Positions 2,220 to 48,400 of a stretch of 64,000 bases of DNA are shown here, piece after piece. The stretch covers positions 5,642,001 through 5,706,000 of the forward strand of contig NC_090340.1 in the NCBI RefSeq assembly GCF_035084215.1, read 5' to 3'. The position numbers were made by a program, and so were the translations under genes. The notes beneath the pieces are model-generated. The model made no database searches. It was not told the origin of the DNA and saw only the letters and a list, made by a program, of their open reading frames with translations. The stretch is from Heptranchias perlo (lineage: Eukaryota). Within the stretch, counting starts at the first letter, position 1. Every line of letters begins with the position of its first letter.

Positions 2220-2274
2220 ATGTTTATGAGTGCGTCACTTTGGAGCATGTGTTTCCTGAGCATTTTGTATCAAG
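2220..2274 (+). CDS. Gene A exon 1, signal peptide (MFMSASLWSMCFLSILYQ, phase 1)
   Basis: ATG at 2220, hydrophobic 18-mer, donor CAAG|gtaatt; a 55-nt homologue exists in copy B. Confidence 0.8.
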
Positions 2275-2619
2275 GTAATTTTTTATTTTTGTTGTTATAC
2301 ATTAACTGTCGCTGAGCAAGAAACAACACTTAAAGTCGATCGTATAGTTGATGTGCTATCGGCTATTGCTTTTTGCTGGTTTAATTTGATTTAACTTTTA
2401 TCATGTCCTGTGTTCCTTGCCGCACGGAAAATAAAACAGGATGAGAAAGTTGATGTTATTCATGATAATTCAATAAGAAAACGCATTCAGGATATGGAGA
2501 ATAATTCTGATAGTTAGGTATATTCAATTACTAATATATCTATGGACTGGACGCGCAATGTTAATCTCGTGGTGCAGATCATCTTTCCTATATATTAATT
2601 ATATAACTTTTCTTGATAG

Positions 2620-2931
2620 TTGCTGTGGACACTTCTGGCAAGGTAAAACAGTGTACTGCACAAAACAAGGCGCTTAGAGGTACAAACCTTATCTTGAAAT
2701 GCCCTATCCCCTTCGATCTCGATCATTCAAACATAACCGTTTACTGGTTGAGAAAGGGTAACAATACCTTCCTGCAACAAGATCGCAGAAAACAGTTTCA
2801 AGTAAAGAAAGGCGGCGCCTACCTTCACCTCTTGAATGTGACTGTCCTGGACTCCGGAATTTATCAATGTTTTGCCAAGGATAAGAAACTAACGGTTGGA
2901 AAAGAAACTTGTGTGCAAGTTGTTGTACATG
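2620..2931 (+). CDS. Gene A exon 2, Ig V-set domain
   Basis: Acceptor ttgatag|, donor CATG|gtaagt; motifs LILKC...VYW...AYLHLLNVTVLDSGIYQC...GKETCVQV; 312 nt, phase 1-1. Confidence 0.9.
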
Positions 2932-2984
2932 GTAAGTGGCAGTGGAATTGGAAGCGTGACGGGTTCAGTTGCAATCGATACTAA

Positions 2985-4495
2985 TCATAATTTTCCAATC
3001 CTCTCTGGATACAGGCGTGGTGCCGGAGGATTGGAGGACTGCAAATGTTTTCTATTGTTTAAAAGGGGATCGAGGGATAGACCGAGTAATTGCAGGCCAG
3101 TCATTCGAACATCGGTGGTGGGCAAATTATTGGAATGAATTCTGAGGAACAGAATTAAACTGTCACTTAGAAAGGCACGCAGTAATGAAGGATAGTCAGC
3201 ATGGATTTTTTTTTTATTCGTTCACGGGATGTGGGCGTCGCTGGCAAGCTCGGCGTCTGACTAACTTGATTGCATTGTTTGAGGAGGTAATATGGAGGGT
3301 CGATGAGGGTAGTGCATTTGATGTTGTCTACATGGATTTTAACAAGGCTTTTAACCAGTTCCCACGTGGCAGACTGGTCAAAAAAATAAAGCTCATGTGA
3401 TCCAAAAGAGAATGGAAATTTGGATCCAAAATTGGCTCAGTGTCCGGAGGGAAATAGTAATGGTCGACAGGTGTTTTTGTGACTGGAAGGCTGTTTCCAG
3501 TGGGGGTCCGAAGGGCTCAGTGCTAGGTCCCTTGGTTTTTATTATATATGCTAATGATTTGGCCTTAAATGTAGGGTGCATGATTAGAAGTTTGCAGATT
3601 GTACAAAAATTGGCCGTGTGGTTGATTTTGAGGAGGAAAGCTGTAGGCTGCAGGAAGATATCAATGGACTGGCCAGGTGGGCAGAAAAGTGGCAAATTGA
3701 ATTCAATCTGGAGAAGTGTGAGGTAATGCCATTGGGGCAAGCAAACAAGGCAATAAATGGGAAGATACTGAAAGGTTTAGAGGAAGTGAGCGACCTTGGG
3801 ATCCATGTCCACAGATCCCTGAAGTTAGCAGGACAGGTAGATAAGGTGGTTCCGAAGGCATATGGAATAATTTCCTTTATTTGCCGAGGCACAGAATATA
3901 AGAGCAGGGACGTTATGCTGGAACTGTATAAAACATTAGTTAGGCCACAGCATGAATACTGTGTACAGTTCTGGTCACCATATTACAAGAAGGATGTAAT
4001 TGCACTCGGGAGGGTACAGAAGAGATTTACCCGGACTGGAGAATTTTAGCTATGAGGAAAGATTGGAGAGGTTGGGGTTGTTCTCCTTGGAACGGAGGAG
4101 GCTGAAGGGTGATTTAATTGAGGTGTACAAAATTATGACGGGTCTAGATAGAATGGATAGAAAGGACCGATTTCCCTTAGCAAAAAGGTAAATAACCAGA
4201 GGATTTTGATTTAAAGTGATTGGTGGAAGGATTAGAGGGGAGCTGAGGATTTGTTTTGTCACCCAGGGGGCGATATGAGACTGGAACTCACTGCCTGAAA
4301 GGGTGGGAGAGGCAGAAACCTTCAACTCATTTAAAAAGTACCTGGATATGTACCTGACGTTCCGTGACTTACAAGGCTACAGACCAAGTGCTGGAAAGTG
4401 GGACTAGGCTGGGTGGATCAGATCCAGCCGGCGCATTCACGATGGGCCGAATAGCCTCCTTCAGTGCGTAAATTTTCTATGATTGTATGATTCTA
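2985..4495 (+). mobile_element. CR1 LINE 3' fragment (degenerate RT, ttctatga-type tail) in the V-C1 intron of gene A
   Basis: ORF fragments with YMDF.KAF, G.P.GSVLGP, RPQ.EYCVQFW; tail at ~4475-4495; absent from copy B. Confidence 0.85.
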
Positions 4496-5307
4496 CATTC
4501 ATACTGCATTTAACAAGGAATTTCAGTAAAGAAATGCCCTGTCTATAAAACAGTACAGCTTTCTACTTGCTGATAACGACACTTGCTCAAAAATAAGGAA
4601 ACTTTTCCAGTTTCCAGAATCTCTGCAAAATGTGTCAACTGACCTATATCATCAATTGTGATTTTATTTTATATTTAGCAAAGACCGTGAATTCAAGGCT
4701 GGGAACTCAAACGCTTCATTTCAATTTTAGCATTGTCAGGATGAAATGTCCTGGGGTCACATGCAATTTTATACATGCTTAAAAACCCTATTTGGAAAGA
4801 AGAAGATAGAAAAGTAAATTCCCATTCTCACGATTTATACGACACGATTCCATTTTCTCCGATGAAGAGACAGTTCCTGAACCGCCATTCGGTGGAACTG
4901 GCGAGTCTCATATGATAAAACCAGTCCCGTGGTTCAGACCGAGGGTCGAACTCGATCCTTTCTGTCCAGAAGAATACAATGTTCTCTGTGTAACGACAGA
5001 ACACGAACTGTACTATTGCAACAGTTTAAGCGGAGCATGCGGATTGGAACACATTGATAATTATAAAATGAGACCCGATGTTGAAAATATTTTTGTGAAC
5101 TGTAACAGTGATACGACAATGGCGTAGAAGAGGAAGTTCGGAAAATAATTTCTCTAAATACAATGAAGAAAGGTTCAGATTAGGCTCTAGTCAGGACAAA
5201 TAATGATTTTCGGTACAACTACGATGCCCGACATATAAAAACAAAGGGTGGATATCGTGTACAGTTCAGACATTTTGCTTTACCTCTTTTTGCTCTTTTC
5301 CGTTTCG

Positions 5308-5613
5308 CTGCCCCCGTTCCTCTCAAAAGTGTCTCCATAACATCTGAAGGGGCTTCACCTGGTTCTCTAAGACTCCAGTGCAGAACGGCTGCTTTTTACC
5401 CGAAGGATTTCAAACTCACCTGGTATAAAAACGGCACTGAAATTGTGACAGGATTTAGAACTGAACAACTTGCAAAGACAGAGGGACTGTATGAAGTTAT
5501 CAGCTCCTTAGAAGTGACACAACCAATCGAGCGCGACTCAGTTTACACTTGTCAAGTGTATCACGTTGCAATCTCGATTCCAGCAATTGACAACTACACC
5601 GTTGCTAACGAAG
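5308..5613 (+). CDS. Gene A exon 3, Ig C1-set domain (open frame, acceptor mutated)
   Basis: LRLQCRTAAFYPKDFKLTWYKNG...GLYEVISSL...YTCQVYH, donor GAAG|gtaaaa; upstream reads tttcg where copy B has tttag. Confidence 0.85.
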
Positions 5614-5980
5614 GTAAAATTACAGAACAAGCAGTATTTTAATAGAATTCTGAGTTCCTTCCCCCAGTGATCGAGTATCCTCGAGTATCCATCGCAGATA
5701 ATGGATAAATACAATAATTTTTGGGTAGGGCTTATTACAGTTGTTTGCATGCTAATCTGTCACCTCAGAAGTCTGATTTCACTCCAGCTCCCATTGAAGG
5801 TTCCTGGTGTATGGATGTGATGAGAATTAAGTTGGACACAAGCAACATAATCATTAGTGGACACCAGCCCTCAGCACAGTTTCCATAATTCATGTTAACT
5901 GGCGGAATATTGTCAGTTCACTAAGAGAGGGCACGGTGAGAGTTGATGCCAGAAATCGAACCATGCGTTCATGGGGATAG

Positions 5981-7307
5981 CCATGATGTGGAGATGCCGG
6001 TGATGGACTGGGGTTCACAATTGTAAACAATTTTACAACACCAAGTTATAGTCCAGCAATTTTATTTTAAATTCACAAGCTTTCGGAGGCTTCCTCCTTC
6101 CTCAGGTGAATGTTGTGGAAATGAAATCCTCGAAATAAAATCGCATTTATAAATCACAGAAAAATGCTTGGTGATTACAGACAGTCTTTTCAACTGCCCG
6201 TTGCCAAGGCAATCAGTGTGCAGACAGACAGGTGTTACCTACAAGGTCTCCGAATATACAAATCACCAAAAAAAAACACAGAGATAGAGAGGTAAAAACA
6301 TAGAAAAGACAGCAACTGACCCGTTATATTAAAAACAGATAACATTTGTTCACTGGTGGGGTAACGTGCAGCGTGACATGAACCGAATATCCTGGTTGAG
6401 GCCGTCCTCATGGGTGCGGAACTTGGCTATCAATTTCTGCTCGACAATTTTGCGTTGTCGTGTGTCTTGAAGGCCGCCTTGGAGTACGCTTACCCGAAGG
6501 TCGGTGGCTGAATGTCCTTGACTGCTGAAGTGTTCCCCGACTGGGAGGGAACCCTCCTGTTTGGTGATTGTTGCGCGGTGTCCGTTCATCCGTTGTCGCA
6601 GCGTCTGCATGGTCTTGCCAATGTAACATGCTCTGGGGCATCCTTTCCTGCAACGCATGAGGTAGACAACGTTGGCCGAGTCACAGGAGTATGAACCATG
6701 CACCTGGTGGGTGGTGTCCTCTCGTGTGATGGTGGTATCTGTGTCGATGATCTGGCATGTCTTGCAGAGGTTACCGTGGCAGGGTTGTGTGATGTCGTGG
6801 ACGCTGTTCTCTTGAAAGCTAGGTAATTTGCTGCGAACGATGGTCTGTTTGAGGTTGGGTGGCTGTTTAAAGGCGAGTAGAGGAGGTGTGGGGATGGCCA
6901 TAGCGAGGTGTTCGTCGTCATTGATGACATGTTGAAGGCTGCGGAGAACATTGCGTAGATTCTCCGCTCCGGGGAAGTACTGGACGACAAAGGGTACTCT
7001 GTTGGTTGGTCCCGTGTTAGTCTCCTGAGGAGGTCTATGCAATTTTTCGCTGTGGCCCGTCGGAACTGTCGATCGATGAGTCGAGCGTCATATCCCGTTC
7101 TTACTAGGGCGTCTTTCAGAGTCTGTAGGTGTCCATCGAGTTCCTCCTCGTCTGAGCAGACCCTGTGTATTCGCAGGGCCTGTCCATAGGGGTGGCCTCT
7201 TTGACGTGGTAAGGGTGGAAGCTGGAAAAGTGGAGCATCGTGAGGTTGTCCGTGGGCTTGCGGTAGAGTGAGGTGCTGAGGTGCCCGTCTTTGATGGAGA
7301 TTCGTGT
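5981..7307 (-). mobile_element. Penelope-like element, 5'-truncated (RT C-terminus plus GIY-YIG endonuclease)
   Basis: ORF 6350-7042 with NVVYLMRC..C...YIGKT...LRQRMNGHR...GLN; SLYRKPTD RT motif in ORF 7116-7508; flanked by the 14-bp direct repeat gttcatggggatag (5967-5980 and 7308-7321). Confidence 0.9.
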
Positions 7308-7871
7308 GTTCATGGGGATAGGACTATTTAGTGGTGGATGGAGATCATCAGATACAGAGTGCGGCTCCCTCGACACTGCACCAAATGTGGAGTAAGAATT
7401 ACTTAGGTCCTGCTTGTGGAAAGATAGATAAAACATTCGTGAAAAGTCGATCCGAAAGGCAATTCCAGCGAATTTGTGAATCCGTCCCATTGTTTTTAAC
7501 ATAAACACTGATAAGGGAAAACACCCAAAACGAACTTAATATTTTCCAACATGTCGCGACCATATGAATTCTTATCCCAATGCGCATTACTTGCATCAAT
7601 TAGTCAAGGATCATTCAGTGTGGTTCGGTTCCCCTAATTTCGCATTGCTGCTAATTATATAAACTACGCGGTACTTCAAAATTTTTGTTGCCGATTTCAT
7701 ACAAATCAGCTGAATCGAGATTTAATGCGATGGGCTTGCTAAGACTGTATGTACTGTATTAATTTATTCTCATATGAGTATCTTTGCAAATTATGCAAGT
7801 AATGTTTAAACCTATATTTAGCCTTTTTACATTCCACAGTTTCTAATTTTGATTTGGTATCAATCTCATCG

Positions 7872-7985
7872 ATTTTGTCTCTGCGATCGGTGTTATTCTG
7901 ATTGCTGGATTTGCCGGGGGTGCAGTGCTAATTCTGCTGTTGACCATTATAGCTGTGAAGGGCCTTCAATTCATTACATCCAAAG
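7872..7985 (+). CDS. Gene A exon 4, transmembrane exon (both splice sites mutated)
   Basis: DFVSAIGVILIAGFAGGAVLILLLTIIAVKGLQFITSK; 114 nt as in copy B; flanks ctcatcg| and |ataggaa versus ctcatag| and |gtatgaa in copy B. Confidence 0.8.
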
Positions 7986-9059
7986 ATAGGAACCATCCTG
8001 ATCTTCTGGAGCATTAACTTTCTGACAGCACATTATTAAAAAAGATTTAATTTAGAAATGAATGATATTAATCAGCCTTTCCACGCAGGTAGAGGTTTAC
8101 AGGATTGATTAGAGTTAGCATCATTGGGAGCCACGCTGCCCGATGGTACTGCCTTACTGATGGACTCATGTTAAAATGTTTCTGAACATACATCCCCATA
8201 TCTGTTTGATCATAACGTAACCTTAGCAGCTCGTAGCTGGAGTTTTCTAAACCCTATTGGTGTAGGTCTAGATCCAGTGCAGTGAATGTCTTGGATGCAA
8301 TGAGGTTTGCACAACTTCATCACTCGAGACATAGTACAATCGAAACGGGCGTTTTTAACATTCTGGAGATACATCGCGATACATGAGGTCCTATTATAAC
8401 CTGCCAACTAACCTAATTACATTTGATTTCGTGATTCTGGTGATAAACCAAAATATTGCGCAATTCATGGCGATTCGTTTCAATTTTATTTCCCAACAGG
8501 CGCAAAGAGAATTTCAGTGAATACGGCTCGGCATGAAGGTCGGGTAAGTTCACCTTATTTTTCCCTATACTTTGATTCTCAAGTAAGCGAAAGTTCTGAG
8601 ATTTTGCACTCAAATGGGGACACGTTAAGAATGCTTTTTGCTTGGATTTATTCTATATGTCTCGCAGTTCTACAAAAATTGTACTTTATGCTAAAAACAT
8701 CGACATATAGAATAATGAACGAAGCGTTTAGAAACTCTCCCACCAATTTTAAATGGATAGATATATTGTTCACTTTGATCTATCTTATTAAAAGTGGTCA
8801 TAATAGTTTACAGGACAAACTGTTGCATTCAAGAGCATTACAGGACTTTGTTCGTTCCTTCCTGTTAAGTATGTGATAGCGTTGAGAAGCAAACTTCCAA
8901 CATTGATCCTTGTTCAATTGATAACATATCTCCGCAGAAGATTTGTAACTTCCTGAACAGTTAATTATTATTACCTTATCCCAACCTCGCCGTTTTACGC
9001 TCCTCACAATCAACCCATCCCGTCCTTATTGCACGATGACCTAACTGGGCATCTGCCAG

Positions 9060-9076
9060 GTGACCGAATCCAAAGG
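9060..9076 (+). CDS. Gene A putative 17-nt cytoplasmic micro-exon (GDRIQR)
   Basis: ctgccag|gtgaccgaatccaaagg|gtataa; conserved in copy B; read-through gives V then TAA (9080-9082). Confidence 0.55.
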
Positions 9077-9249
9077 GTATAAGTGATGCAGCCAATCTGC
9101 GGCTATCTTTCACAAGCTGCCGGCCTCAAACATCTATATTTACACGCAGTTCTCGCCACAAATGGTGGCGTGAAAGCTAGAACAAGGAGAGTTAGTGTTG
9201 GAGCACACATTTTTTCGTTATTCATTCTCGGGATCTGTTTGTCGTTTGC

Positions 9250-9540
9250 AAGGATTATTGCCCATCTGTAGTTGCACTGAGAAGGTGGTAGTGGGCCTTC
9301 TTCTTGAACTGCTGACAGAGGTTTGATGCAATTATGTGGCATGCTACGCCACTTCAGACGACAATTAAGAGTCAACCACATTGGTGTGGGACTAGAGTCA
9401 CAAATAGGCGAAACCGAGTAAGGACGGCAGGTTTCCTTCACTAAAGGACATTAATAGAATCAGTTGGATTTTTACGACAATCCAACAGCTTCATGGTCAC
9501 TGTCACTGACACGAGCTTTTTATTTCCAAATATTTTAAAC
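9250..9540. mobile_element. SINE / LINE-tail-derived repeat (also at ~47170-47520)
   Basis: ttattgcccatc...gagaaggtggtagtgggccttcttcttgaac motif, shared with the LINE tail at ~19150 and present in both duplicates. Confidence 0.5.
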
Positions 9541-10911
9541 GTTGTATATCCATTATATCCAGATACTGCCCTATATCTAGTCTTCCCGTCTTTGTCCACG
9601 TCCTGGAACGTGTTTTGCCTCCCATAATTCATTAGTTAACACTCGCCTTTCCTGCGTCTAACTCACGCACTGTGTGTCATTGAAACTCGCAAATGACTTC
9701 TTTGCAACCGTCAACATTGTTCCCATTCCCTTTGAGCTCTTCATCAAGTTTGACATCATGAAACACTGCGTTATTCTCCAATCTATTTGTCGACAGTCCG
9801 ATTCCATAGTACACTTTTTCGCGATCCGCGTGTACTGTTAAACAAGGGCATTAACTTAACTCCATTCCTGAGGTGAATTTTCTCTTCATTTCGTATTTTT
9901 CTCCTTGGGATGGCTCTTACTGCATCAGCTGTTCACAACTTATTTGTTTGTTTAATGCCTTTATTTTCTAAATGTTTCATTCTACTTTTATTCCAGCTTT
10001 AGTTCCTCTCTTAATTTATTTTTCCCCTCGAACCCATTCCCCTTACATCAGGTTATATTAAAATGTTCCATTTCTCATTTTCGTATTCAGAATAGGAACC
10101 AAGTCCCATGTGTTAATCTGCTTGTTCTCTCCACGGTTGCGGACTGGCTCGTGTCTTTCCTGCTTTTTGATTGACTTGAGTTCAGAGTTAGCAGTTTTTT
10201 TACCATTATTCTTGTGATAGCACTTCTAATACATTCTCGCCATCTGCCCACACCATCATGGAGCATTGAGCCCAGTGTTCCATTCACAATTCGTCAACTT
10301 AATCATTGACATGCGATCTCATTGCAATATGATTCAACGGGACAGGATCAGTTTTCAGGTGCACACTTGATACCCAGCTTGCTTTTCGATTGAGTATATT
10401 GCTCCAAAGACTGTTGCTCCCATCTGCAACATTCAGGTCCTGATGAGTCAACAGTTTCTGCATGAAAGGAGAGCCAAACAATATTTGTTATTGCATATCT
10501 TGAGACCCCCAACCTCTTCTGCTTTCGCCTCAGTATAAGTCATGATCTGGAAAACCTCAGCTTATAAGTTGACTGAGAACTAAGCCAAGCATCGCCCCTC
10601 ACCTCCTTTTTGCTGCCATTTTGTTCCGTGCATAACCTCAACATCTTCCTCTTCCGTCGACCACCCTCTCACTGAACTCCTGCAAGAGTGCACTCCTCTA
10701 CTGGTATCTCTCAAACAGCTTACTCCTACTCTGACACATGCATATCTCATATTCCAGCTCAGCTTCAATAACTATCTCCACTCTCCATCAATCTTAACTC
10801 GTTCAGAACATTGGAATACGTACGCTCACCCACAGAATGTTCGTATTCCCGAAATTCTATCCTTTCCAAGCTGCAGTGGTTCCCTGGCACCAAAATCCTC
10901 CTCCTCACCTG

Positions 10912-11795
10912 TACATAAGAGCATAAGGAATAGGATCAGGAGTAGGCCACATGGCCGCTCGAGCCTGCTCCGCAATTCAATCAGATCATGGATGATCTTC
11001 GACGTGAAGTCCACTTACCTGCCCGATCCCCATGTACCTTGACTCCTCTATAGTACAACGACTCAACGACTCAGCATCCATAGCCCTCTGGGGTAGAGAA
11101 TTCCAAAGATCCACAAAGCTCTGAGGAAAGAAATTCCTCCTCATCTCAGTCCTAAATGGCCCACCACTTATCCTGAGATTCTGCCCCTTAGTTCTAGACT
11201 CTTCAGCCATGGGAAGTAACCTCTCAGCATCTATCCTGTCAAGCACCCTCATAATCTTCTGTTTCAATGAGGTCATCTCTCATTCTTTTAAACTCCAGGG
11301 AGTATAGGCCCATTCCACTCAAAATTGTCTCATCGGAGAACCCTCTCATCCCGGGAATTAATCTAGTGAATGTTCGATGCATCACCTCTAAGGCAAGTAT
11401 ATCCTTCCTTAGATAAGGAGACCAAAACTCTACACAGTACTCCAGATGAGGTATAACCAAAGCCCTGTACAATTGTACTAAGACTTCCTTACTTTTGTAC
11501 TCCGACCTCCTTGCAATAAAGGCCAGCATTCCATTTGCTTTCCTAATTGCTGGCTGTACCTTCATGCTAACTTTTTTTGTCTCTTGTACAAGGACACCCA
11601 AGTCTCTCTGAACACCAACAGTTAACAGTTTCTCACCATTTAAAAAATATTCTGTTATTCTCTTCTTCCTACCAAAGTGATTAACCTCACGTTTCCCCAC
11701 ATTATAGTCCATCTGCCACCTTCTTGCCCACTTACTTAACCTGTCGAGATCCCTTTGCAGACCCTTTGTGTCCTCCTCACAGCTTACCTTCTCAC
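10912..11795 (-). mobile_element. CR1 LINE 3' fragment
   Basis: ORFs 10986-11276 and 11239-12042 with CR1 RT C-terminal motifs (PHLEYCVEFWSPYL); tail (cataaga)n at ~10913; absent from copy B. Confidence 0.85.
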
Positions 11796-13433
11796 CTGCA
11801 ATACGTTCCCTGGTCTCGCCCGCTCGACTTTCGTGATCTCCTCCATCCATACATCCCACAAGCAACCGCGGCTCCTCTGACATCACGTTGCACCTTGTCA
11901 CCTCCTCCTCTGATCCACCACGGGGCGTAGCAGTTTTCGCCATTGTGTACGTTGCCATCTCTGAATCGACCTGGCTTACTTGTTCCTTCATAAGACTTAA
12001 AGTATATGCTAAAACCGTTTCATTCGCCTGTAGCTTCCTCAAACTTAGGTTATTTTTTTCATACCACTAAGTCACCATTTCTTTACTCCCATTCAATAAG
12101 ACGTTCTGAGCGTCCTGTATAAAGGCAAGTTTATGTTTAAACAATGTTCGCTGCCAGTACACTTGAGTCATTTCTCTGCAAGATTTATTTTTTGGTCTTT
12201 TGATGAATTGCACTTTCAGATATCGCAATTTTTAACGTTTCACATCATCAACAACGCTTCCTCTTATGTCACCAATTGGATCAGTGAGCACCAAGCCGCA
12301 AAAAATATAAGAAATGTGAAATTTATGAATAACGGAAATGGAAAGTTAATCTTGAGAGAAGTGGAGACGAAATTTAGGGACCTGAAATAATTTGGTTTAC
12401 ATTTGGAGTAAACTTGCTAAAATATGATAAAGCAATATCATTTGTGAAAAGAGTGGTGAATTCTTTGCCGAACTGGTTTCTGAATAATACGGGTTTCAAT
12501 TTAAATGTTATTTAAATATCCTAATCACGAGTATTGTTTAGTGAAACGCAGTTTATTTGGTGTGCACACAACTCTTCAGGAAAACACAATAATCCGATCT
12601 ATCAACGTTCTCGAATTATATACTTGAAACTTATTTGAAGATATGTTTGGAGATTCATGGCAATAGCACAAATGCAAACAATTGAGATGAATGTTTTTGA
12701 GTTTTAGTGAATACCTTCTTAATGTAAGTTATTTTTCAACATTCAGAATGAAAAAAATCCGTATATGGATGTTCACTTAGGACTAAACCAAATCTGTTGT
12801 CTCCATCGTACTCTGTCCACGTTGTGGCTTGAATTTCCAGTGCTCCATTTCATGAAGGAAAGTGAAGCGAACTTGCCCACGGCCCTTTTGCTGACCACTG
12901 ACAGCGAAGCTGTATAAAATGTGTCGGTCTTCCGTATTAAAACAACCACTGTTTGGGTGAAAGGAGTTGGGCCAGGTAATTGGGAGCTAATACAGGAGTT
13001 AACGAACCGCTGCAGCTTAAAAGGGAATGTTTAACATTTGTGGCATTGGTCAGGAGCTGAGAGTTCTGGCAACCAAACGTGATCTTCAAATTTCGCTGAA
13101 CCAAAATGGGTATATTACTGGAAGCTGTGACAGCAAGAATGGCAATGCTGTTTTCACATGAGGAAATTGAGCGATGCAGTCACAGTGTGGGTATAGTGGA
13201 TGTAGCTGGCTAAAATTGTTAGTGCCTCTTGTGCATCCCTTCATGATCAGCAGGGAACAAGTGATAGTGTACCAGAATTAGGAAAGCAAATGCCGCACAA
13301 ATCCGAGTGAATTCATACATATAAATCAAAAAAATATCTGTATTGGACTTCTCGATCTCTCTTTCATATATGTTAAACATTCGCTAAACGCCGGGATATA
13401 CTACTTCTAGCACTTTTCCATTCTGATCAACAA

Positions 13434-14075
13434 AGGGCCAGAAATCGCTCCCGAAATTACAGAGGAGCTCAAAAGCGCTCTCAGTTTTCAGTAGTAAATT
13501 TCAGCATCAAGTTCCCACATTTGCACATGCGCAGTGAAACGCGGAAATCTGGAGCTTGCCCTTCGAGGTTCCCCGGCGAAATGAGAGCTTCGAATCAAAC
13601 AACCATGGCACGCTGCAATCAGAGAAATCATTGAAAAAGCGCAACAATGCTTATTTGTTGAACTGGAAAATAACTAAATACGCCACCAAATAGGTACACA
13701 TAAAAATGCCAGATCGAAACTACGTTTTAACAGCGCGGTTAGTCTTAAAGACTGTCAAACAATTAAAATTAACTTTTAAAAATGTGGGGTCTAATATTAC
13801 TCCCTATTTTAATAGTTTTTGGCTGTTAAAAAATAAAAATGGAAAAAATATATATTTTTTAAATTTTCCCTTCTGTCTTTTTAATTTAATTCAATTATTT
13901 ATTTGGCTTTTTTTTATTTGCAATGACATATAGAATATTACCTTTAACTGAATGAAGATTGCTTGCCTGCTTGGGCAATGGAGACTGAACCTGTGGGCGT
14001 GACTTCTCTTCCTGACAGATTTTGGCGTGTCCTCTCCTCATACACTTTTCCAGCCGCGCAGCAATTCTGGCTGCT
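13434..14075. mobile_element. Possible non-autonomous DNA transposon (MITE-like)
   Basis: Imperfect terminal inverted repeats gggccagaaatcgct (~13435) and agcaattctggctgc (~14060); no coding capacity. Confidence 0.3.
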
Positions 14076-24145: not shown

Positions 24146-24509
24146 AAACATAGAAACACAGGAAATTGGAGCAGGGTTAGGCCATTCGGCCCTTCGATCC
24201 TGTTCCGCCATTCAATATGATCATTTTTGATCCTCTATCAGAATACCATATTCCTGCACTCTCCCCGTACCCCTTGATGCCTTTTGTGTCCAGACATCTA
24301 TCTATCTCTTTCTTAAATATATTTAGTGTCTTGGCCTCCACAGACTTCTGTGGTAGAGCATTCCACAGGTTCATCACCCTCTGAGTGGAGAAATTTTTCC
24401 TCATCTCAGTCCTAAATGTCCTACCACGTATCCTGAGACTGTGACCCCTCGTTCTGGACCCCCCCCCCCCCCCCAACCCTCCACCCCGGCAGAATTTTAT
24501 ATGTTTCAT
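24146..24509 (-). mobile_element. Older CR1 3' end, interrupted by the young CR1 and continuing at ~27141-27300
   Basis: RTRGHSLRIRGRTFRTEMRKNF..QRV.NLWN; (gaaacata) tail; continuation atcccctctcattttt at 27140. Confidence 0.75.
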
Positions 24510-27140
24510 TGAGTCATAGAGTCATAGAGTTATACAGCACGGATAGAGGCCCTTCGGCCCATCGTGTCCGCGCCGGCCATCAAGCCCTGTCTACTCTAAT
24601 CCCATATTCCAGCATTTGGTCCGTAGCCTTGTATGCTATGGCATTTCAAGTGCTCGTCCAAATGCTTCTTGAATGTTGTGAGGGTTCCTGCCTCCACAAC
24701 CCTTTCAGGCAGTGAGTTCCAGACTCCAACCACCCTCTGGGTGAAAAAGTTCTTTCTCAAATCCCCTCTAAACCTCCCGCCTTTTACCTTGAATCTATGT
24801 CCCCTTGTTATAGAACCCTCAACGAAGGGAAAAAGCTCCTTAGTATCCATCCTTTCTGTGCCCCTCATAATTTTGTACACCTCAATCATGTCCCCCCTCA
24901 GCCTCCTCTGCTCCAAGGAAAACAAACCCAATCTTCCCAGTCTCTCTTCATAGCTGAAGCGCTCCAGCCCTGGTAACATCCTGGTGAATCTCCTCTGCAC
25001 CCTCTCCAAAGCGATCACATCCTTCCTGTAGTGTGGCGACCAGAACTGCACACAGTACTCCAGCTGTGGCCTAACCAGTGTTTTATACAGCTCCATCATA
25101 ACCTCCTTGCTCTTATATTTTATGCCTCGGCTAATAAAGGCAAGTATCCCATATGCCTTCTTTACCACCTTATCTACCTGTTCCGCCGCCTTCAGGGATC
25201 TGTGAAATTGCACACCAAATCCCTCTGACCCTCTGTCTTGCCTGGGGTCCTCCCATTCATTGTGTATTCCCGTGCCTTGTTAGTCCCTCCAAAGTTCATC
25301 ACCTCGCACTTTTCCGGGTTAAATTCCATTTTCCACTGTTCCGCCCATCTGACCAACCCATCTATATCGTCCTGCAGACTGAGGCTATCCTCCTCGCTAT
25401 TTACCACCCTACCAATTTTTGTATCATCAGCGAACTTACCGATCATACCTTTTACATTCATATCCAAGTCATTAATGTAGACCACAAACAGCAAGGGACC
25501 CAGCACCGATCCCTGTGGTACCCCACTGGCCACAGGCTTCCAGTCACAAAAACAACCTTCGACCATCACCCTCTGCCTTCTGCCACTAAGCCAGTTTTGT
25601 ATCCAAAGTGCCAAGGCACCCTGGATTCCATGGGCTCCTACCTTCTTAACCAGTCTCCTGTGGGGGACTTTATCAAAGGCCTTACTGAAATCCATGTATA
25701 CCACATCCACTGCGTTACCCTCATCCACACGCCTAGTCACCCCCTCAAAAAATTCAATCAAATTAGTCAGACATGATCTTCCCTTGACAAAGCCATGTTG
25801 ACTATCCCTGATTAATCCTTGCTTCTCCAAGTAGAGACTAATTTTGTCCTTCAGAATTTTTTCCAATAATTTTCCTACCACTGATGTTAGGCTCACTGGC
25901 CTGTAGTTCCCCGGTTTTTCCCTATTCCCCTTCTTGAATAATGGTACTACATTAGCGGTTCTCCAGTCCTCTGGCACATCCCCTGTGGCCAGAGAGGTTC
26001 TGAATATATGTGTTAGAGCCCCCGCAATCCCCTCCTTTGCCTCACACAGTAGCCTGGGATACATTTCGTCCGGGCCTGGGGATTTATCCATGTTTAGGCC
26101 TGCTAAAACCGCCAATACCTCCTCCCGCTCGATGTTAATATGTTCGAGTATATCACAGTCCCCCTGCCGTATTTCTATGTCGACGTCGACCTTCTCCATA
26201 GTGAAAACAGATGCAAAAAATTCATTTAGAGCCCCTCCTACATCTGCCGCCTCCACACACAGATTGCCATTTTTGTCCCTAATGGGCCCCATTCTTTCCA
26301 AAGTCATCCAGCTACCCTTAATATACTTATAAAACATCTTAGGATTTTCCTTTATTTTGCTCGCCAGTGTTATTTCATGGCCCCTCCTTGATCTCCTAAT
26401 TTCTTTTTTAAGTATCCCCCTGCACTTTTTGTACTCCTCTAGGGCTTCCTCCGTCCTTAGCCTTTTGTATCTTCCAAAAGCCCTCCTTTTTTTCCTAATC
26501 CATTCTCGTATATCCCCTGACATCCAAGGTTCCCTGGAGTTCTTGGAACCACCCTTGACCTTTACGGGAACATGTTGCCATTGTATGGTCTCAATCTCCC
26601 TTCTGAAAGACTCCCATTGCCCCGATGCGGATTTTCCTACAAGCAGCTGATCCCAGTCCATTTTGGCCAGATCCTGCCTTATCCTATTAAAATCGGCCTT
26701 CCCCCAATTTAGAACCTTTATTTCCGGCCCCTCCCTATCCTTTTCCATGACCACCTTAAATCTCACCGAATTATGGTCACTGTCACCAAAGTGCTCACCT
26801 ACTGGCACTTCTTCCACTTGGCCGGCCACATTCCCTAGAATTAGGTCCAGTACCGCCCCCTCTCTTGTAGGACTTTCAACATGCTGGCTCAAAAAGATCT
26901 CCTGGATGCACGTTAAGAATTTTGTACCCTCTAAGCCTTTTACACTCTGGGTATCCCAGTTAATATTGGGGAAGTTGAAATCCCCCACTATTATTACCCT
27001 ATTATTTGCACAATTTTCTGAGATTTGCCTACATATCTGTTCCTCTATCTCCCCCTGACTGTTTGGGGGCCTATAGTACACTCCCATCAAAGTGCTTGCC
27101 CCCTTTTTGTTTTTAAGCTCCACCCACATGGCCTCATTAG
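24510..27140 (-). mobile_element. Young CR1 LINE, 5'-truncated ORF2 (partial endonuclease plus RT), one frameshift
   Basis: ORFs 25192-27129 (645 aa) and 24596-25213; FADDTK motif; (ctctatga)n tail at 24510-24535. Confidence 0.95.
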
Positions 27141-34510: not shown

Positions 34511-37100
34511 AGCACTTTGATGGGAGTGTACTATAGGCCCCCAAACAGTCAGGGGGCATAGAGGAACAGATATGCAGGCAAATCTCAGAAAATTGTGCAA
34601 ATAATAGGGTAATAATAGTGGGGGATTTCAACTTCCCCAATATTAACTGGGATACTCAGAGTGTAAAAGGCTTAGAGGGTACAAAATTCTTAACGTGCAT
34701 CCAGGAGAGCTTTTTGAGCCAGCATGTTGAAAGTCCTACAAGAGAGGGGGCGGTACTGGACCTAATTCTAGGGAATGTGGCCGGCCAAGTGGAAGAAGTG
34801 CTAGTAGGTGAGCACTTTGGTGACAGTGACCATAATTTGGTGAGATTTAAGGTGGTCATGGAAAAGGACAGGGAGGGGCCGGAAATAAAGGTTCTAAAAT
34901 GGGGGAAGGCCGATTTTAATAGGATAAGGCAGGATCTGGCCAAAATGGACTGGGATCAGCTGCTTGTAGGAAAATCCACATCGGAGCAATGGGAGTCTTT
35001 CAGAAGGGAGATTGAGACCATACAATGGCAACATGTTCCCGTAAAGGTCAAGGGTGGTTCCAAGAACTCCAGGGAACCTTGGATGTCAGGGGATATACGA
35101 GAATGGATTAGGAAAAAAAGGAGGGCTTTTGGCAGATACAAAAGGCTAAAGACGGAGGAAGCCCTAGAGGAGTACAAAAAGTGCAGTGGGATACTTAAAA
35201 AAGAAATTAGGAGATCAAGGAGGGGCCATGAAATGACACTGGCGAGCAAAATAAAGGAAAATCCTAAGATGTTTTATATGTATATTAAGGGTAAGAGGAT
35301 GACTAGGGAAAAAATAGGGCCCATTCGGGACAAAAATGGCAATCTGTGTGTGGAGGCGGCAGATGTAGGAGGGGTTCTAAATGAATTTTTTGCATCTGTT
35401 TTCACTATGGAGAAGGACGATGTAGACATAGAAATACGGCAGGGGGACTGTGATATACTCGAACATATTAACATCGAGCGGGAGGAGGTATTGGCGGTTT
35501 TAGCAGGCCTAAAAATGGATAAATCCCCAGGCCCGGACGAAATGTATCCCAGGCTACTGTGTGAGGCAAAGGAGGAGGTTGCGGGGGCTCTGACACATAT
35601 ATTCAGAACCTCTCTGGCCACAGGGGATGTGCCAGAGGACTGGAGAACCGCTAATGTAATACCATTATTCAAAAAGGGGAGTAGGGAAAAACCGGGGAAC
35701 TACAGGCCAGTGAGCCTAACATCAGTGGTAGGAAAATTAATGGAAAAAATTCTGAAGGACAAAATTAGTCTCCACTAGGAGAAGCAAAGATTAATCAGGG
35801 ATAGTCAACATGGCTTTGTCAAGGGAAGATCATGTCTGACTAATTTGATTGAATTTTTTGAGGGGGTGACTAGGCGTGTGGATGAGGGTAACGCAGTGGA
35901 TGTGGTATACATGGATTTCAGTAAGGCCTTCGATAAAGTCCCCCACAGGAGACTGGTCAAGAAGGTAGGCGCCCATGGAATCCAGGGTGCCTTGGCACTT
36001 TGGATACAAAACTGGCTTAGTGGCAGAAGGCAGAGGGTGATGGTCGAAGGTTGTTTTTGTGACTGGAAGCCTGTGGCCAGTGGGGTACCACAGGGATCGG
36101 TGCTGGGTCCCTTGCTGTTTGTGGTCTACATTAATGACTTGGATATGAATGTAAAAGGTATGATCGGTAAGTTCGCTGATGATACAAAAATTGGTAGGGT
36201 GGTAAATAGCGAGGAGGATAGCCTCAGTCTGCAGGACGATATAGATGGGTTGGTCAGATGGGCGGAACAGTGGCAAATGGAATTTAACCCGGAAAAGTGC
36301 GAGGTGATGCACTTTGGAGGGACTAACAAGGCAAGGGAATACACAATGAATGGGAGGACCCTAGGCAAGACAGAGGGTCAGAGGGATCTTGGTGTGCAAG
36401 TTCACAGATCCCTGAAGGCGGCGGATCAGGTAGATAAGTTGGTAAAGATGGCATATGGGATACTTGCCTTTATTAGCCGAGGCATAGAATATAAGAGCAA
36501 GGAGGTTATGATGGAGCTGTATAAAACACTGGTTAGGCCACAGCTGGAGTACTGTGTGCAGTTCTGGTCGCCACACTACTGGAAGGATGTGATCGCTTTG
36601 GAGAGGGTGCAGAGGAGATTCACCAGGATGTTACCAGGGCTGGAGCGCTTCAGCTATGAAGAGAGACTGGGAAGATTGGGTTTGTTTTCCTTGGAGCAGA
36701 GGAGGCTGAGGGGGGACATGATTGAGGTGTACAAAATTATGAGGGGCACAGAAAGGATGGATACTAAGGAGCTTTTTCCCTTCGTTGAGGGTTCTATAAC
36801 AAGGGGACATAGATTCAAGGTAAAAGGCGGGAGGTTTAGAGGGGATTTGAGAAAGAACTTTTTCACCCAGATGGTGGTTGGAGTCTGGAACTCACTGCCT
36901 GAAAGGGTTGTGGAGGCAGGAACCCTCACAACATTCAAGAAGCATTTGGATGAGCACTTGAAATGCCATAGCATACAAGGCTACGGACCAAATGCTGGAA
37001 TATGGGATTAGAGTAGACAGGGCTGATGGCCGGCGCGGACACGATGGGCCGAAGGGCCTCTATCCGTGCTGTATAACTCTATGACTCTATGACTCTATGA
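34511..37100 (+). mobile_element. Young CR1 LINE, 5'-truncated ORF2; near-identical inverted copy of 24510-27140
   Basis: ORFs 34618-35778 and 35845-37011 are almost identical to the minus-strand copy; (ctctatga)3 tail. Confidence 0.95.
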
Positions 37101-42405: not shown

Positions 42406-42460
42406 ATGTCTATGAGTGTGTCACTTTGGAGCATATGTTCCTTTGGCATTTTGTATCCAG
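42406..42460 (+). CDS. Gene B exon 1, signal peptide (MSMSVSLWSICSFGILYP)
   Basis: ATG at 42406; donor CCAG|gtagac. Confidence 0.8.
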
Positions 42461-45400
42461 GTAGACTTTTATTTTTTTTTGTTATCAATCTATCTTTCCT
42501 GAACAAGAAACAGCACATGAACTATTTCTTATAGTTGATGTACAATTGGATATTATTTTATGCTGTTTTAAATTAATGTTTGTTATCATGTCCCTTGCCA
42601 GAGGGAAACATCTAGTTGAGTAAGGTGATGTTTTTTTTATGATCATTCAATGAGGAAACAATTTCAACAGATGGAAAATAATTCTCAGAATTAGGTATAT
42701 TGAATTACTAAAGTATCAATGGAGTGGATGGAGGATCTTATTTTACCGGTTCAGGTCATCTTCCCTATATATGAATTATTTAACGGTGTGGCTTCTTTTG
42801 TTGATAGTTGCTGTGGATACTTTGGGCAAGTTGTCTCCGGGTATTGTGCAAAAGAAGGCGCTAAGAGGTACGAACATTACCTTGCAATGTCCTTTTCCCT
42901 TCGATCTCGATCATTCAAACATCAGCATTTACTGGTGGAGAGAGGGCATCGGTACCTTTCTGCAAGAAGAGAGCAGAAAACAGTTCCAAATAAAAAAAGG
43001 CTGCGCCTATCTTCATCTCTTGAATGTGACTGTCCCTGACAACGGAACGTATCATTGTTTGGCTGAAGATCAGAAGCAAAGGGTTAGAAAAGAATCTCGT
43101 GTGCACGTTATTGTTTTTGGTAAGTATCAGTGGAACTGGAAATGTGAAGAGTTTAGTTGCTTTTGATATTCAAACTGCGTTTGACATGGAATTCCAATAA
43201 TGAAATGTCCTGTGTATAAAAGAATACAGCTTTCTTCTTATTTATAACGACACGCGTTCAACAATAATGAAACCTTCCCACTTCCAGAGCCTCTCCAAAA
43301 TGTGACAACTGAACAATATCTTCAATTGTTGTTTAATGTTATGTTCATCAAGGAAATAAATTCCAGGCTGGGAAGTAAAATGCTTCTTTCCAATTTTAAC
43401 ACTATGTACCCCTATGAAACATCTCGGGGTTATTTGCAATGTTACAGATATTTAAAGATCCAATGGAAAGAAGAGGATAGAGGAGAAAGATTCCCATTCC
43501 CTCATTTAGACGGCGCGCTTCCCGCTTCTGGTATCCAGATAAAATTCCTGAATCGCCGTTCGGTGAACAGGCGAGATAAACCTGATAAATCAGGTGCCGT
43601 AGTCCAGACCGAGGTTTGAACTGGATCCTTTACATACAAATGAAGGAAATGTTCTTGATGTAACAAGAGAACGCGTCCTGTTCAATTTCAAATGTTTAAG
43701 CGTAGCATAGTCATTCGTACACCATAATATTAATAAAAAGAGGCCCAACTTTGGAAATAAATGTTGTTAAATACAACAGTTATACGTCAGTACTGCTGGG
43801 GAGGAAATTGGGATATTAATACCTGTAGATATATTGAAGAAATATTTAGGTTGAGTTCCATTCAGCATAAATAATAATTGCCAATACAACTACGGTGCCC
43901 CGTCACAAGCGCTGGTTTATTTATGAAAACAGAGTGTAGAAATTCCTACATGTCAAATATTTTTCTGCATCTCTTTTTGTTCTTTACCATTTAGCTGTAC
44001 CCTCTCCGCTGAAGATTGTCGCCATAACATCCGAAGGGGCTTAATCCGCTTCTCTGCGACTCCAGTGCAGAACGGCTGCTTTTTACCCGAAGGACTTTAA
44101 CCTCATCTGGCAAAAAAATGGTACCGAAATCGTGACTGGATTTAGAACTGAACAACAGGCAAACACAGAGGGACTGTATGAAGTTACCAGCTCCTTAGAA
44201 GAGACACACCCAATCGAGCGCGGCACAATTTACACCTGTAAAGTATATCACCTTTCAAACTCAATTCCAGCAAGTGCCAGCTACACTGTTGGTAATGATG
44301 GTAATTTTATAGCACATATGGTATTGTATTGATTTCCGTGTTTCTTCTCGCACTAATCGAGCTTCCATCGCAGATAATGGGTAAATACAAGAAAATGCGG
44401 GAAGTGTTTCCTGCAGTTGTTCGCATATCATTCTGTCACCTCCGAAGTCTGGTTTTACTCCAGCTCCCATCGATCGCGTGAAGATTCCATTTCTGTTGGT
44501 TATTGGGATATGATGAGAAATAATTTGGACACAAGCAACTTAGCTAATAGTGGACAATAGTCCTCAGCACAGTTTCCATAATTCATGCTAACTGGCAAGT
44601 GATATTGCAAGTTCACTAAGAAAGGGCACGGTGAGGGGTGATGCCGGAAAACCGAACCATTCGTCATTGGGATTGAAATAGTTAGTGAGGGCTGGAGGCA
44701 TGGAATGGGGGAATTGATGACTTTGACATCCCTGCATCCAAGACGCAATCCAAGGTCATTCCCTGCATCATCAGATTCACAGTGCGGAGCCCTCGACACT
44801 GCACCAAATATAGAATAATTAGGTTGTTCTTGTGGAAAAATGGAAAAAGTCTTCGTGAGGCTGTGATCCGAAAGGCAATTCTAGTGAATTTGTAAATACG
44901 TCCCAGTGTCTTTAAGAGTTCGCCCTCAATCAGCAATTGTTATTTAATGTTATGTTTATCAAGGAAAGTAGATTAAAGGCTGCGAACTATATTGCGTCTT
45001 TCTAATTTTAGCACTAAGTATCCGTATAAAACATATTGTGGTTATTTGCAATGATGTAGATGTTTAAAGGACCAAAGGAAAGAAGAGGATAAAAGAGGAA
45101 GATTCCCATTCCTTCATTTAGACCACGCGCTTCCAGTTTCTGCGATTCAGATAAAATTCCTGAATCGCCGTTCGGTGAAACAGGCGAGACACATAAGATA
45201 AATCAGATGCCGTAGTCCAGACCGAGGTTTAAACTGGATCCTTTATCTACAGAAGAAGAAAGTGTTCTCTAAAAACGTAACGCTTCCTGCACTATTCCAA
45301 CTGTTTAGCACAGCAAGACGATTCGTACACCGTAAAATTAATATAAAAGAGGCCCAATTTTCGAAATAAATTTTGTAAATACAACAGTGATACATCAGTA

Positions 45401-48400
45401 CTGCTGGGGAGGAAATTAATCATAGAAAACACCCAAAACATCTTTAATATTTTCCTACATATCGCGACCAGATGAATTCTTATCCCAATGAACTATACTC
45501 CCATCAATTAGTGGAGGATCATTCAGTGTGTTTTTCCACCTTTTTACGGATTGCTGCTAATTATCCAAACTACGCGTTATTTGAAACACTTTGTTGCCGA
45601 TTTCATACAAATCAGATGAATAAAGAATTAATTAAATGGACCTGCTGATGCCTTATGTATTGTATTAACGTATTCTCATAGGAGTATCTTTGTAAGTGAT
45701 GCTTGTGATATTTAAACCTACGTATATTCTTTTTTAATTTCCCCAGTTTCTAATTTTGTTTTGATATCAATCTCATAGATGTTGACTCTGCATTCAGTGT
45801 TGCTCTGATCGCTGAATGTGCCGGGATTGCAGTGGTAATTCTACTGTTGACCGTTATGATTGTGAAGGGACTTCAATTCATTACGTCCAAAGGTATGAAG
45901 CATCCCGACCTTCTTGATCATTGACTATCTGTTAGCAAATTACAACAAATTCCTTAAATTAGAAATTAACGGTATAATTGATGCCGAAGCAAATACTATA
46001 CACGCAGGCAGATACTGTATAACATTAGTATAACATCATTGGTAGCGGAGCTGCCCAGTTGTACAAACTATCCGAGGGATTGATGTGACAATATTTCTGA
46101 AGATACATCGCCATATCTCACCGCTTCAACAGCAGCAGTCTCGTAGCTGGAGTTTGCTGAACTCTGTTGGTGTAGGTCTAAATCTCGTGCAGTGAATGTC
46201 TAGGGTGCATAATGTTTACACAGCTTCATCACAAGGGACATAACACAACGGAAGCGCGCGTTTCTAGGATGCTGGAGATAAGGCGTGATACGTGGGGCCC
46301 TATTAGAAACTGCGAACTGAACTAATTGCATTTGATTTCGTGGTTCTGGTGAAACACCGAAATATTGGGCAATTCTTGGCCATTCATTTCAATTTTATTT
46401 CCCACCAGGTACAAAGAGAAATCCAGTGAATTCTGCTCGGCATGAAGATCGGGTAACGTCACCTTATTTTTCACTACTTTGTTTCAAAAGGACTGAGATT
46501 TTGCACTCAAATGAGACAGCGTTAAGAATGTTCCCTGCTTGGATTTATTCTGTGTGTCTCGCTGTTCTGTAAAAAAAAAATTATGATAAAAAATTGTAAT
46601 ATAGAATAACGAACGGAGTGTTTAGAAACTCTCGCACCGATTTTAAGTGATCAGATAATTGTTCAGTTTAATCTACCTTATTGAAAATTGCCATAATATT
46701 ACATGCCATAATATTATAATAACTGTAGTATTGAGCATTACAGAACGTTGTTTGTTTCTTTGTGCTAACCAGGTGATAGCATGGAGATGTAAACACCCAA
46801 CATTGATCCTTGTTCATCAATTGACAACAGATATCCATAACAGATTTCGACCTTCCTAAACAGTCCATTATTTTGAGCAAACTTCAACTCCGCCTTTCTG
46901 CGCTGCTCAAAATCAACCCATCCCGTCCGTTTAGATCGGTGACCTACCTGCCTTCTCCCAGGTGACCGAACCCAAAGGGTATATGCCGTGCAGCCAATCT
47001 GCGGTTATCTTTAATAAGCTGGTGGCCTCAAACAGTATCCTATTAGAGGCTGTTCCCCCCAAAAGTTCCACAAGTGGTGGCGTGGAAGCTGGATCAAGGA
47101 CAGTTGCTGTTGGAGCACATGTTTCATTATTATTCAGTCTCGTGATTTGGGTTTCGTTGGCAAGGCAGATATTTATTGCCCATCCCGAGTTATCCTGAAA
47201 ACGTGGTGGTGGGCCTTCTTCTTGAACCGCTTATAGCGGTTTGATAAAAAATAAATGGCTTGCTACGCCACTTCAGAGGACAGTTAAGAGTTAACCACAT
47301 TGTTGTAGGTCTGGATTTACTCATAGGCTAGACCGTGTAAGGGCGGCAGGTTTCCTTCCCTAAACGATATTATAGAACCAGCTGGATTCTTACGACAATT
47401 CAACATTGTCACTGATACCAGCTTGTTATTTTCAAAAATTTTAAACTAAATTCAAGTTCTCAAACTATTGTTTGAATGCAGCTGCTCAGGGTTATTAGTC
47501 CAGGCCCCTGGATACGGTGACTAAAATTGAAAAAACTTGTTCTGGAATGTTGCGTGCTTCACCATTTTAGGAATAATGTGACATCGCGTTCTCCCTTTCT
47601 TATAAATATCGAGACAGCATGACATATTTGCTCGGCTCAGGGCCATGGTCCCTCCCCGAAGCGGGCACTGTGCCCCCGGTGACATGCAAATCAATATCCA
47701 ATGATATGATAGTCTCCCCAGAGAGCTCGAACAATAAGACCCATACTTTGTCTGCGTTGTATACTGTGATCTGCTCATGTCCATATATGCGTTTCTTTTA
47801 GATTCCAAATGATAAGGATTGCGATGAGTCCAGGTCAATTATAGATCAACAAGTTATTTAATTTTATATGGCACACATGAATCATAGATGCATAGAACCA
47901 TAGAAAATTTACGGCACAGAGGGAGGCAATTCTGCCCATTGTGTCTGCGCTGGCTGAGAAACGAGCCACACAGCCGAACCCCACTTTTCCGCATTTGGTC
48001 CATAGCCCTGTATGTCACGGCTCTTCAGGGACACATTGAGATATTTTTTAATGAGTTGAGGGTTTCTGCCTCTACCACCCTCTCAGGCAGTGATTTCCTG
48101 ACCCCCACCACCCTCTGGGTGAAAGAAAATCCCAATTTCCGCTCTTATCCTTCTACCAATTACATTAAATATGTGCTCTCTGGTTATTCACCCTCTGCTA
48201 AGGGAATTATCAACTTTATCTAGGCCACTCATAATTTTGAACAGCCCACTGCATTCACCCCTCAGCCTCCTCTTTTCCAAGGAAAACAACCCCAGCCTAT
48301 CCAATCTGTCATCATAGCTAAAATTCTCCAGCGCTGGCAACATCCTCGTAAATCTCCTCTGCACCCTCTCTAGTTCAATTACATCTTTCCTGTAATGTGG

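Follow-up and report, generated by a model that had tools for sequence, protein, structure and literature searches.

Gene A, a copy of a shark receptor gene with one V and one C1 domain, is probably a young pseudogene produced by birth-and-death turnover in a cluster of paired receptors. It was found in a window of 64,000 nucleotides, the whole stretch of Heptranchias perlo DNA analysed here (assembly GCF_035084215.1, contig NC_090340.1, positions 5,642,001 to 5,706,000), which sits on the contig we call C18; coordinates are those of the window unless C18 is named. The original prediction for this DNA had proposed a soluble V-only decoy partnering a second, inhibitory gene downstream (gene B), and had itself named pseudogene decay as the alternative; we favour decay because it fits the family context better. 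The lesions in gene A, a deletion, the family and its rate of damage were all observed directly.

Lesions and deletion in gene A

The closest paralogue of gene A, referred to as the sister, has its V exon at C18 position 5568165, 76 kb upstream, shares about 88-89% intron identity with gene A and retains a full reading frame with four tyrosine motifs. Relative to it and to other family members, the following features were recognized in and around gene A (TM, transmembrane; LINE, long interspersed nuclear element; CRE, cyclic AMP response element):

2097-2102 and 2108-2115, + strand: promoter-like hexamer and octamer, seen in the sequence, which we take to be of E-box type and CRE type, respectively
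2220-2274, + strand: leader exon, intact, with donor GT
2620-2931, + strand: V exon, a non-rearranging V with a J-like end; open, both splice sites intact, Pfam V-set
2981-4496, + strand: LINE fragment in the V-C1 intron, presumably of CR1 type, common to the sister gene
5306-5307, + strand: C1 acceptor, destroyed (CG replacing AG)
5308-5613, + strand: C1 exon, open, donor intact, Pfam C1-set
5328-5329, + strand: AG arisen on the gene A branch, 22 nucleotides inside C1, weak (2.0 bits)
5981-7343, - strand: retroelement fragment in the C1-TM intron (GIY-YIG match, E 0.0009, below the Pfam cut-off), presumably of Penelope type
7838-7839, + strand: strong AG 32 nucleotides upstream of the TM acceptor (12.0 bits, rank 2 among the 637 AGs in 2960-14000)
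7870-7871, + strand: TM acceptor, destroyed (CG replacing AG)
7872-7985, + strand: TM exon, open, with an identical exon start in Heterodontus models
7986-7987, + strand: TM donor, destroyed (AT replacing GT)
8500-8543, + strand: first cytoplasmic exon, acceptor and donor intact, in frame with V
9060-9082, + strand: "micro-exon" of the original prediction with its TAA, probably intron
9539/9540, no strand: junction of a 2.9-kb deletion relative to the sister, from the alignment of the two genes

All three splice lesions are real, as had been claimed: gene B carries AG, AG and GT at the sites where gene A has CG, CG and AT, and so do four further paralogues of ITIM type (ITIM, immunoreceptor tyrosine-based inhibitory motif) whose TM exon could be aligned (4 of 10 fetched). 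It was likewise confirmed that the exons of gene A, all of normal length, are free of stops and indels, and that the leader, V exon and promoter-like motifs are present, with leader and V splice sites intact. In addition, a clean deletion of 2.9 kb has removed both ITIM exons and the stop codon, as seen in the alignment to the sister. Judging from this sequence, gene A is unable to make a normal membrane receptor. Disabling lesions in an intron-bearing gene are one mark of a duplicated pseudogene, and gene A has three destroyed splice sites and two lost exons. The loss of terminal exons and the uptake of a private retroelement (the 5981-7343 fragment, missing from the sister gene) likewise speak for a pseudogene.

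It is scarcely credible that the lesions are assembly errors, because the deletion and the private insertion show independent damage. Checks against DNA contigs from four public runs, all of one sample and possibly the assembly's own source, gave graded results. The TM acceptor is spanned in 4/4 runs with no alternative letter, and the TM donor is covered with no differences, where the best run has only 30 letters on one side. At the C1 acceptor there is depth and no other letter is listed; that no listed piece bridges this site is a point in favour of an error. From a small-share DNA run of another organism, the pieces listed comprise a single one, within intron 1, and none that covers a lesion.

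A family of inhibitory and activating V-C1 genes

The family was searched for across the contigs of the assembly. Of 84 V matches, 83 fell on C18; the C1 search gave at least 132 matches among the 150 of 269 candidates that were scored. These correspond to at least about 99 separate loci on C18, most of which lie within 2.7-6.0 and 14.5-15.6 Mb, and any figure of 99 genes rests on those 150 scored candidates. Among the 12 closest copies, six retain ITIM exons, five have an Arg-bearing TM and a short tail, and gene A has neither tail. Two TM types recur in the wider family, one Cys-Gly-rich with tails and one Arg-bearing with short tails. ITIM-type tails, charged TM segments with short tails and a tandem cluster with turnover are the features of paired families (PMC3533184 for the two tail types), and by these features the cluster is a paired family of inhibitory (ITIM) and activating (Arg-TM) receptors, with signalling predicted from the tails. 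Given this layout, pairing within the cluster is that of inhibitory with activating members.

Relatives of the cluster genes are present in Heterodontus and Scyliorhinus, and databases name the cluster genes inconsistently. No description of this shark cluster was found in the full-text literature searched, a scope that left most subscription papers and supplements outside. With at least about 99 antigen-receptor-like genes in inhibitory and activating forms, the V-C1 family is arguably a more useful lead than gene A itself.

Some further observations concern the cluster as such. At about 3.5-4.0 and 4.3-4.9 Mb of C18, many genes appear twice with equal scores and near-identical sequence, indicative of either recent segmental duplication or an uncollapsed haplotype. 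One Arg-TM paralogue (L011:1498-1806, C18 5477655) is otherwise intact and has lost the second core Cys of its V domain, and L043 and L041 carry a partial V-exon duplicate in the promoter region upstream of the leader.

Damage across family copies

V and C1 were scored for damage in 92 of the about 99 places (with V inside the stretch for 84), and flagged rows were read by hand. Forty-one rows were flagged, of which 11 were discounted because their flags came from aligning to references that were distant or mis-called (L065, L066, L067, L079, L080, L083, L102, L111, L112, L122 and L130) and two stayed unclear (L103 and L115). This left 28 of 92 copies with damage in V or C1, which took the form of stops or frameshifts alone in 16, of splice lesions alone in five and of both kinds in seven. 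Some of the one-base indels counted here may be sequencing errors. As a pseudogene, gene A would thus be ordinary, since about three in ten family copies are damaged.

A lost splice dinucleotide was found in 12 of the 28 damaged copies. L109 and L118, a dead pair, have splice lesions only, located in a C1 that has also lost a core Cys. The sole lesion of L106 is a lost C1 acceptor, and that of L068 an AG to CG change at the V acceptor; the position of the latter means that L068 cannot be a V-only conversion. (L068 and L106 each adjoin an intact twin of 97-99% identity.) Damage was confined to C1 in nine copies and to V in seven, or five after merging near-identical duplicates, so that among the 92 copies scored the family shows no excess of C1-only over V-only damage.

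On this background, the history of gene A may be pictured as follows. It is a duplicate of an inhibitory V-C1-TM-ITIM receptor gene; once it had parted from the intact sister, with each branch diverging by about 4%, a single lesion presumably ended its function, and the remaining lesions would have piled up in the absence of selection. If transcription persists, the transcript would probably skip C1 and TM and join V to exon 8500, followed by a new last exon, and the likely by-product would be a secreted V domain whose tail is arbitrary. Alternatively, V might be joined to the AG before 7840 or to the new weak AG at 5328-5329.

Substitution rates and constraint

The gene A branch measures about 0.042 substitutions per site, equal to that of the sister (168 versus 167 changes at 4548 non-coding sites). 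Replacements in gene A numbered 14.5 in V against a neutral expectation of 10.1, 6 against 9.7 in C1 (p 0.15) and 4 against 3.4 in TM. At sites invariant in seven other paralogues, gene A changed at 8 of 181 positions in V and at 9 of 302 in C1 and TM together, compared with 32 of 1026 in introns (Fisher p 0.37 and 1.0, respectively). In the sister, C1 and TM were constrained at those sites (2 of 302 versus 51 of 1026 in introns, p 0.0002), and the direct comparison of nine with two C1 and TM changes gave a binomial p of 0.065. C1 and TM therefore look relaxed in gene A, as both a pseudogene and a soluble V protein would predict.

No sign of special conservation of V was seen in gene A: its V changed at or above the intron rate, and all eight V changes at invariant sites are replacements. 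The suggested comparison of V with C1 and TM by the ratio of replacement to silent changes (dN/dS) also gave no difference on the gene A branch (13 replacements and 6 silent changes in V, 10 and 4 in C1 and TM, Fisher p 1.0), and it is without power, given that intact copies likewise show a fast-evolving V, with 4-11 replacements at invariant sites. For the same reason, the rate of V in gene A is no proof of death.

As for individual positions, the V domain of gene A keeps both core Cys and the Trp, and is predicted to adopt an immunoglobulin (Ig) fold (mean predicted local distance difference test score 80), with generic Ig I-set and V-set matches in a fold search. It has two extra Cys that none of the 68 other V domains compared possesses; one of these new Cys belongs to a cluster of replacements in strand A (codons 9-15, 2644-2667). 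In C1, the replacements I7S, S17P and N35K occur in none of 58 wider-family C1 domains. The proximal promoter shows one change at 68 sites invariant in the seven other paralogues, and the CRE-type octamer is not retained in the intact sister gene.

A soluble V protein as the principal rival

It is possible, if doubtful, that gene A functions within the family as a soluble protein with V alone, and that the stepwise loss of ITIM exons, TM and C1 was tolerated or favoured because skipping C1 and TM preserves the frame. Its mRNA would run from leader and V into exon 8500 (or from V to the acceptors at 7840 or 5330) and on to a new last exon, and the product would compete for the ligand of close relatives, namely the intact inhibitory sister and an Arg-TM gene upstream.

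Several observations support this rival and weigh against simple pseudogene decay. The concentration of lesions on splice sites was correctly remarked upon, as three hits of three exceed simple decay (p about 0.005-0.03): nine real splice sites offer about 18 base-equivalents of target, compared with 81-90 for stops and frameshifts, so that neutral decay places about 17-18% of disabling hits on splice sites and three of three has a p of about 0.005-0.006. With hand-tallied family rates (12 splice and about 43 coding events) the p is about 0.03. A wholly neutral branch predicts 3.4-3.8 stops or frameshifts, and none was seen (p 0.02-0.03). All three hits fall on C1 and TM, the two exons that are skippable in frame (both are symmetric phase-1 exons), while promoter and leader are nearly unchanged. 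Changes at conserved protein positions number three in V and six in C1 of gene A, and six and two, respectively, in the sister. The splice pattern is the best argument for the soluble-V idea, and its oddity is in our judgement tempered by the many damaged copies, by L109 and L118, and by the choice of this window for that very pattern.

Nine open-frame products were modelled, using acceptors 5330, 7840, 8500 and beyond, and read-through after V. Eight have a tail of 3-57 residues and no TM; the ninth, obtained by read-through after exon 8500, has a tail of 125 residues with hydrophobic stretches. Past the deletion, strong unused acceptors lie at 9797, 9997 and 10221. As modelled, the gene A products omit the TM exon frame and nearly all would be a secreted V domain, which also fits the rival, as do the predicted fold with its core residues and the relaxation of C1 and TM relative to the sister. 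Skipping of C1 is annotated for a Heterodontus isoform (P0002), and a soluble protein can occur within a paired family, as LILRA3 does (PMC3533184). Against this, V is not protected in gene A, the two new Cys could be unpaired, C1-only damage is not in excess in the family, and each tail is, as modelled, arbitrary sequence. Moreover, any release from selection must be recent, because C1 and TM are without stop or indel.

Three runs guessed to be RNA, all of one sample, were compared at 80% likeness. The V and C1 pieces listed differ from gene A by 22-47 letters, which identifies them as paralogues, and two of them end at exon borders; none of the listed pieces is A-like, which is no evidence either way. 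No candidate was found among short V-only homologues (56-181 amino acids), which is weak evidence.

In a bolder form, which strikes us as rather unlikely, the cluster would be a large, apparently undescribed shark paired-receptor family that includes a soluble form besides inhibitory and activating ones, and gene A would be that soluble form in the making. Deletion and splice-site loss alone would have rid it of ITIM exons, TM and C1, recently enough for the discarded exons to have stayed open. Were gene A expressed and selected, it would document, within the oldest lineage to possess adaptive immunity, how in-frame exon skipping can give rise stepwise to a secreted paired-receptor member.

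The 3' part of gene A

In a transcript that skips C1 and TM, 8500-8543 is the best candidate for a true exon following V. The AG at 7838-7839 is out of frame with TM and yields a tail of 20 residues and a stop; it is common to the sister, gene B and one more paralogue, and missing in the fourth compared. With the AG at 5328-5329 in use, V would be followed by three residues before a stop.

We consider it very unlikely that splicing at cryptic or non-canonical sites allows gene A to go on producing a protein that is membrane-bound and does not signal. In favour of this, both C1 and TM have open frames, C1 replacements fall below the neutral expectation (6 versus 9.7, p 0.15), and read-through after exon 8500 gives the long tail with hydrophobic stretches. 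Among nine AGs near the C1 start, however, the sole one in frame (5350) scores -8.7 bits and would cut into the first strand; use of the acceptor at 7840 would put TM out of frame, and TM has lost its donor.

The junction originally proposed joins V to 9060. Its frame does read GDRIQRV and end at TAA 9080-9082, whereas the use of 9060 as an exon acceptor was not borne out, the site being probably intron from its sequence context. A 17-nucleotide exon at this site would shift the frame into ITIM exon 1, and a search for a compensating micro-exon after 9060 gave two candidates, neither with both sites conserved. The intact sister is without the AG and reads in full frame to its four tyrosine motifs regardless, and in Heterodontus models the 8500-type exon is joined directly to the ITIM exon. 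The acceptor scores -2.5 bits (rank 191 of the 637 AGs), which alone is weak evidence, as the same splice matrix gives -1.7 to gene B's ITIM-exon-1 acceptor. In favour of an exon, the AG is kept in genes A and B and in 4/5 other aligned paralogues. Against one, about 11% of intronic 17-nucleotide windows equal this site in conservation. The 2931 to 9060 junction is thus unsupported, because its site is probably intronic and lies behind the stronger acceptors at 7840 and 8500.

Gene B

Gene B lies 40 kb downstream of gene A, with about 74% nucleotide identity to it. All of its features are on the + strand:

42406-52495: whole gene
42406-42460: leader
42808-43119: V
43995-44300: C1
44042-44044: in-frame TAA within the C1 exon
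45779-45892: TM
46409-46452: cytoplasmic exon
52109-52219 and 52376-52495: ITIM exons

It had been presented as the inhibitory partner; that the gene is intact was not confirmed, given its own C1 stop. Gene B could, from its exons, encode a V-TM-ITIM receptor only if C1 is skipped; a C1-skipping form is annotated for a Heterodontus relative (isoform X4, P0002, by annotation). Nor is gene B the nearest relative of gene A: V identity to gene A is 63-64% for gene B, compared with 76% for the intact sister and 75% for the Arg-TM gene upstream. The C1 stop and the lower V identity leave the pairing of A with B unsupported. It is accordingly highly improbable that V is spliced to 9060 to give a decoy for gene B with a seven-residue tail. 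The open join ending at the TAA and the AG kept in A, B and 4/5 other paralogues would suit such a decoy; the frame shift caused by 17 nucleotides, the sister without the AG, the Heterodontus models that skip the site, the equally conserved windows (about 11%) and the stop in gene B's C1 all stand against it.

Ahead of ITIM exon 2 (52365-52376), gene B and two paralogues no longer possess the AG that serves the others, and have an in-frame AG nine nucleotides downstream. B-type TM exons (45779-45892 in gene B) encode a charged residue despite ITIM tails; it is Glu, replaced by Lys in two paralogues.

Comparison with known receptor systems

The shark cluster resembles LILR, KIR, SIRP, PIR and Xenopus XFL in that its genes lie together, encode ectodomains that are alike, and have ITIM tails in some cases and a charged TM followed by a short tail in others. 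It differs from them in having one non-rearranging V and one C1, in its occurrence in cartilaginous fish and in its size on one contig (at least about 99 C1-bearing places). LILR comprises activating members with an Arg-bearing TM and one soluble member, LILRA3 (PMC3533184), and putative secreted forms occur among the XFL cDNAs (PMC2413239). For LILRA3, both expression of the protein and its ligands are known, whereas gene A is known from its sequence only.

SIRP is similar in having V and C1-set domains, tandem tyrosine motifs, and both inhibitory and activating members; the best PDB sequence matches of one paralogue include SIRP alpha and gamma, and RefSeq labels one Heterodontus relative "PTPNS1-like". 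The SIRP ectodomain has the layout V-C1-C1, and membership of the shark genes was rejected, since each has one C1; their activating TM carries an Arg. In human, SIRP genes neighbour NSFL1C, which can be marked by its SEP domain, and PDYN. SEP-domain hits fell on C22 and C3 and not on C18, and a search for the opioid family as a marker of PDYN returned nothing anywhere in the assembly.

Relatives that carry automatic names (B7H6/NCR3LG1-like, tapasin-related-like) share the V-C1 ectodomain; these names are best hits and disagree among close relatives. The dichotomy of ITIM and Arg-TM forms points to receptors. The non-rearranging shark genes UrIg and UrIg2 are alike in that C1 comes after a V exon that is unsplit and J-like at its end (PMC10751288, PMC12227049). 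As described there, UrIg is secreted, has three C1 domains and is linked to the major histocompatibility complex, UrIg2 has ten domains, and neither forms a large paired cluster. Membership in UrIg, with a VJ and at least three C1 domains, was rejected for the single-C1 cluster genes.

Other features of the window

Outside the two genes, two inverted LINE copies are located at 24506-27054 and 34552-37100, 97-99% alike and 7.5 kb apart.

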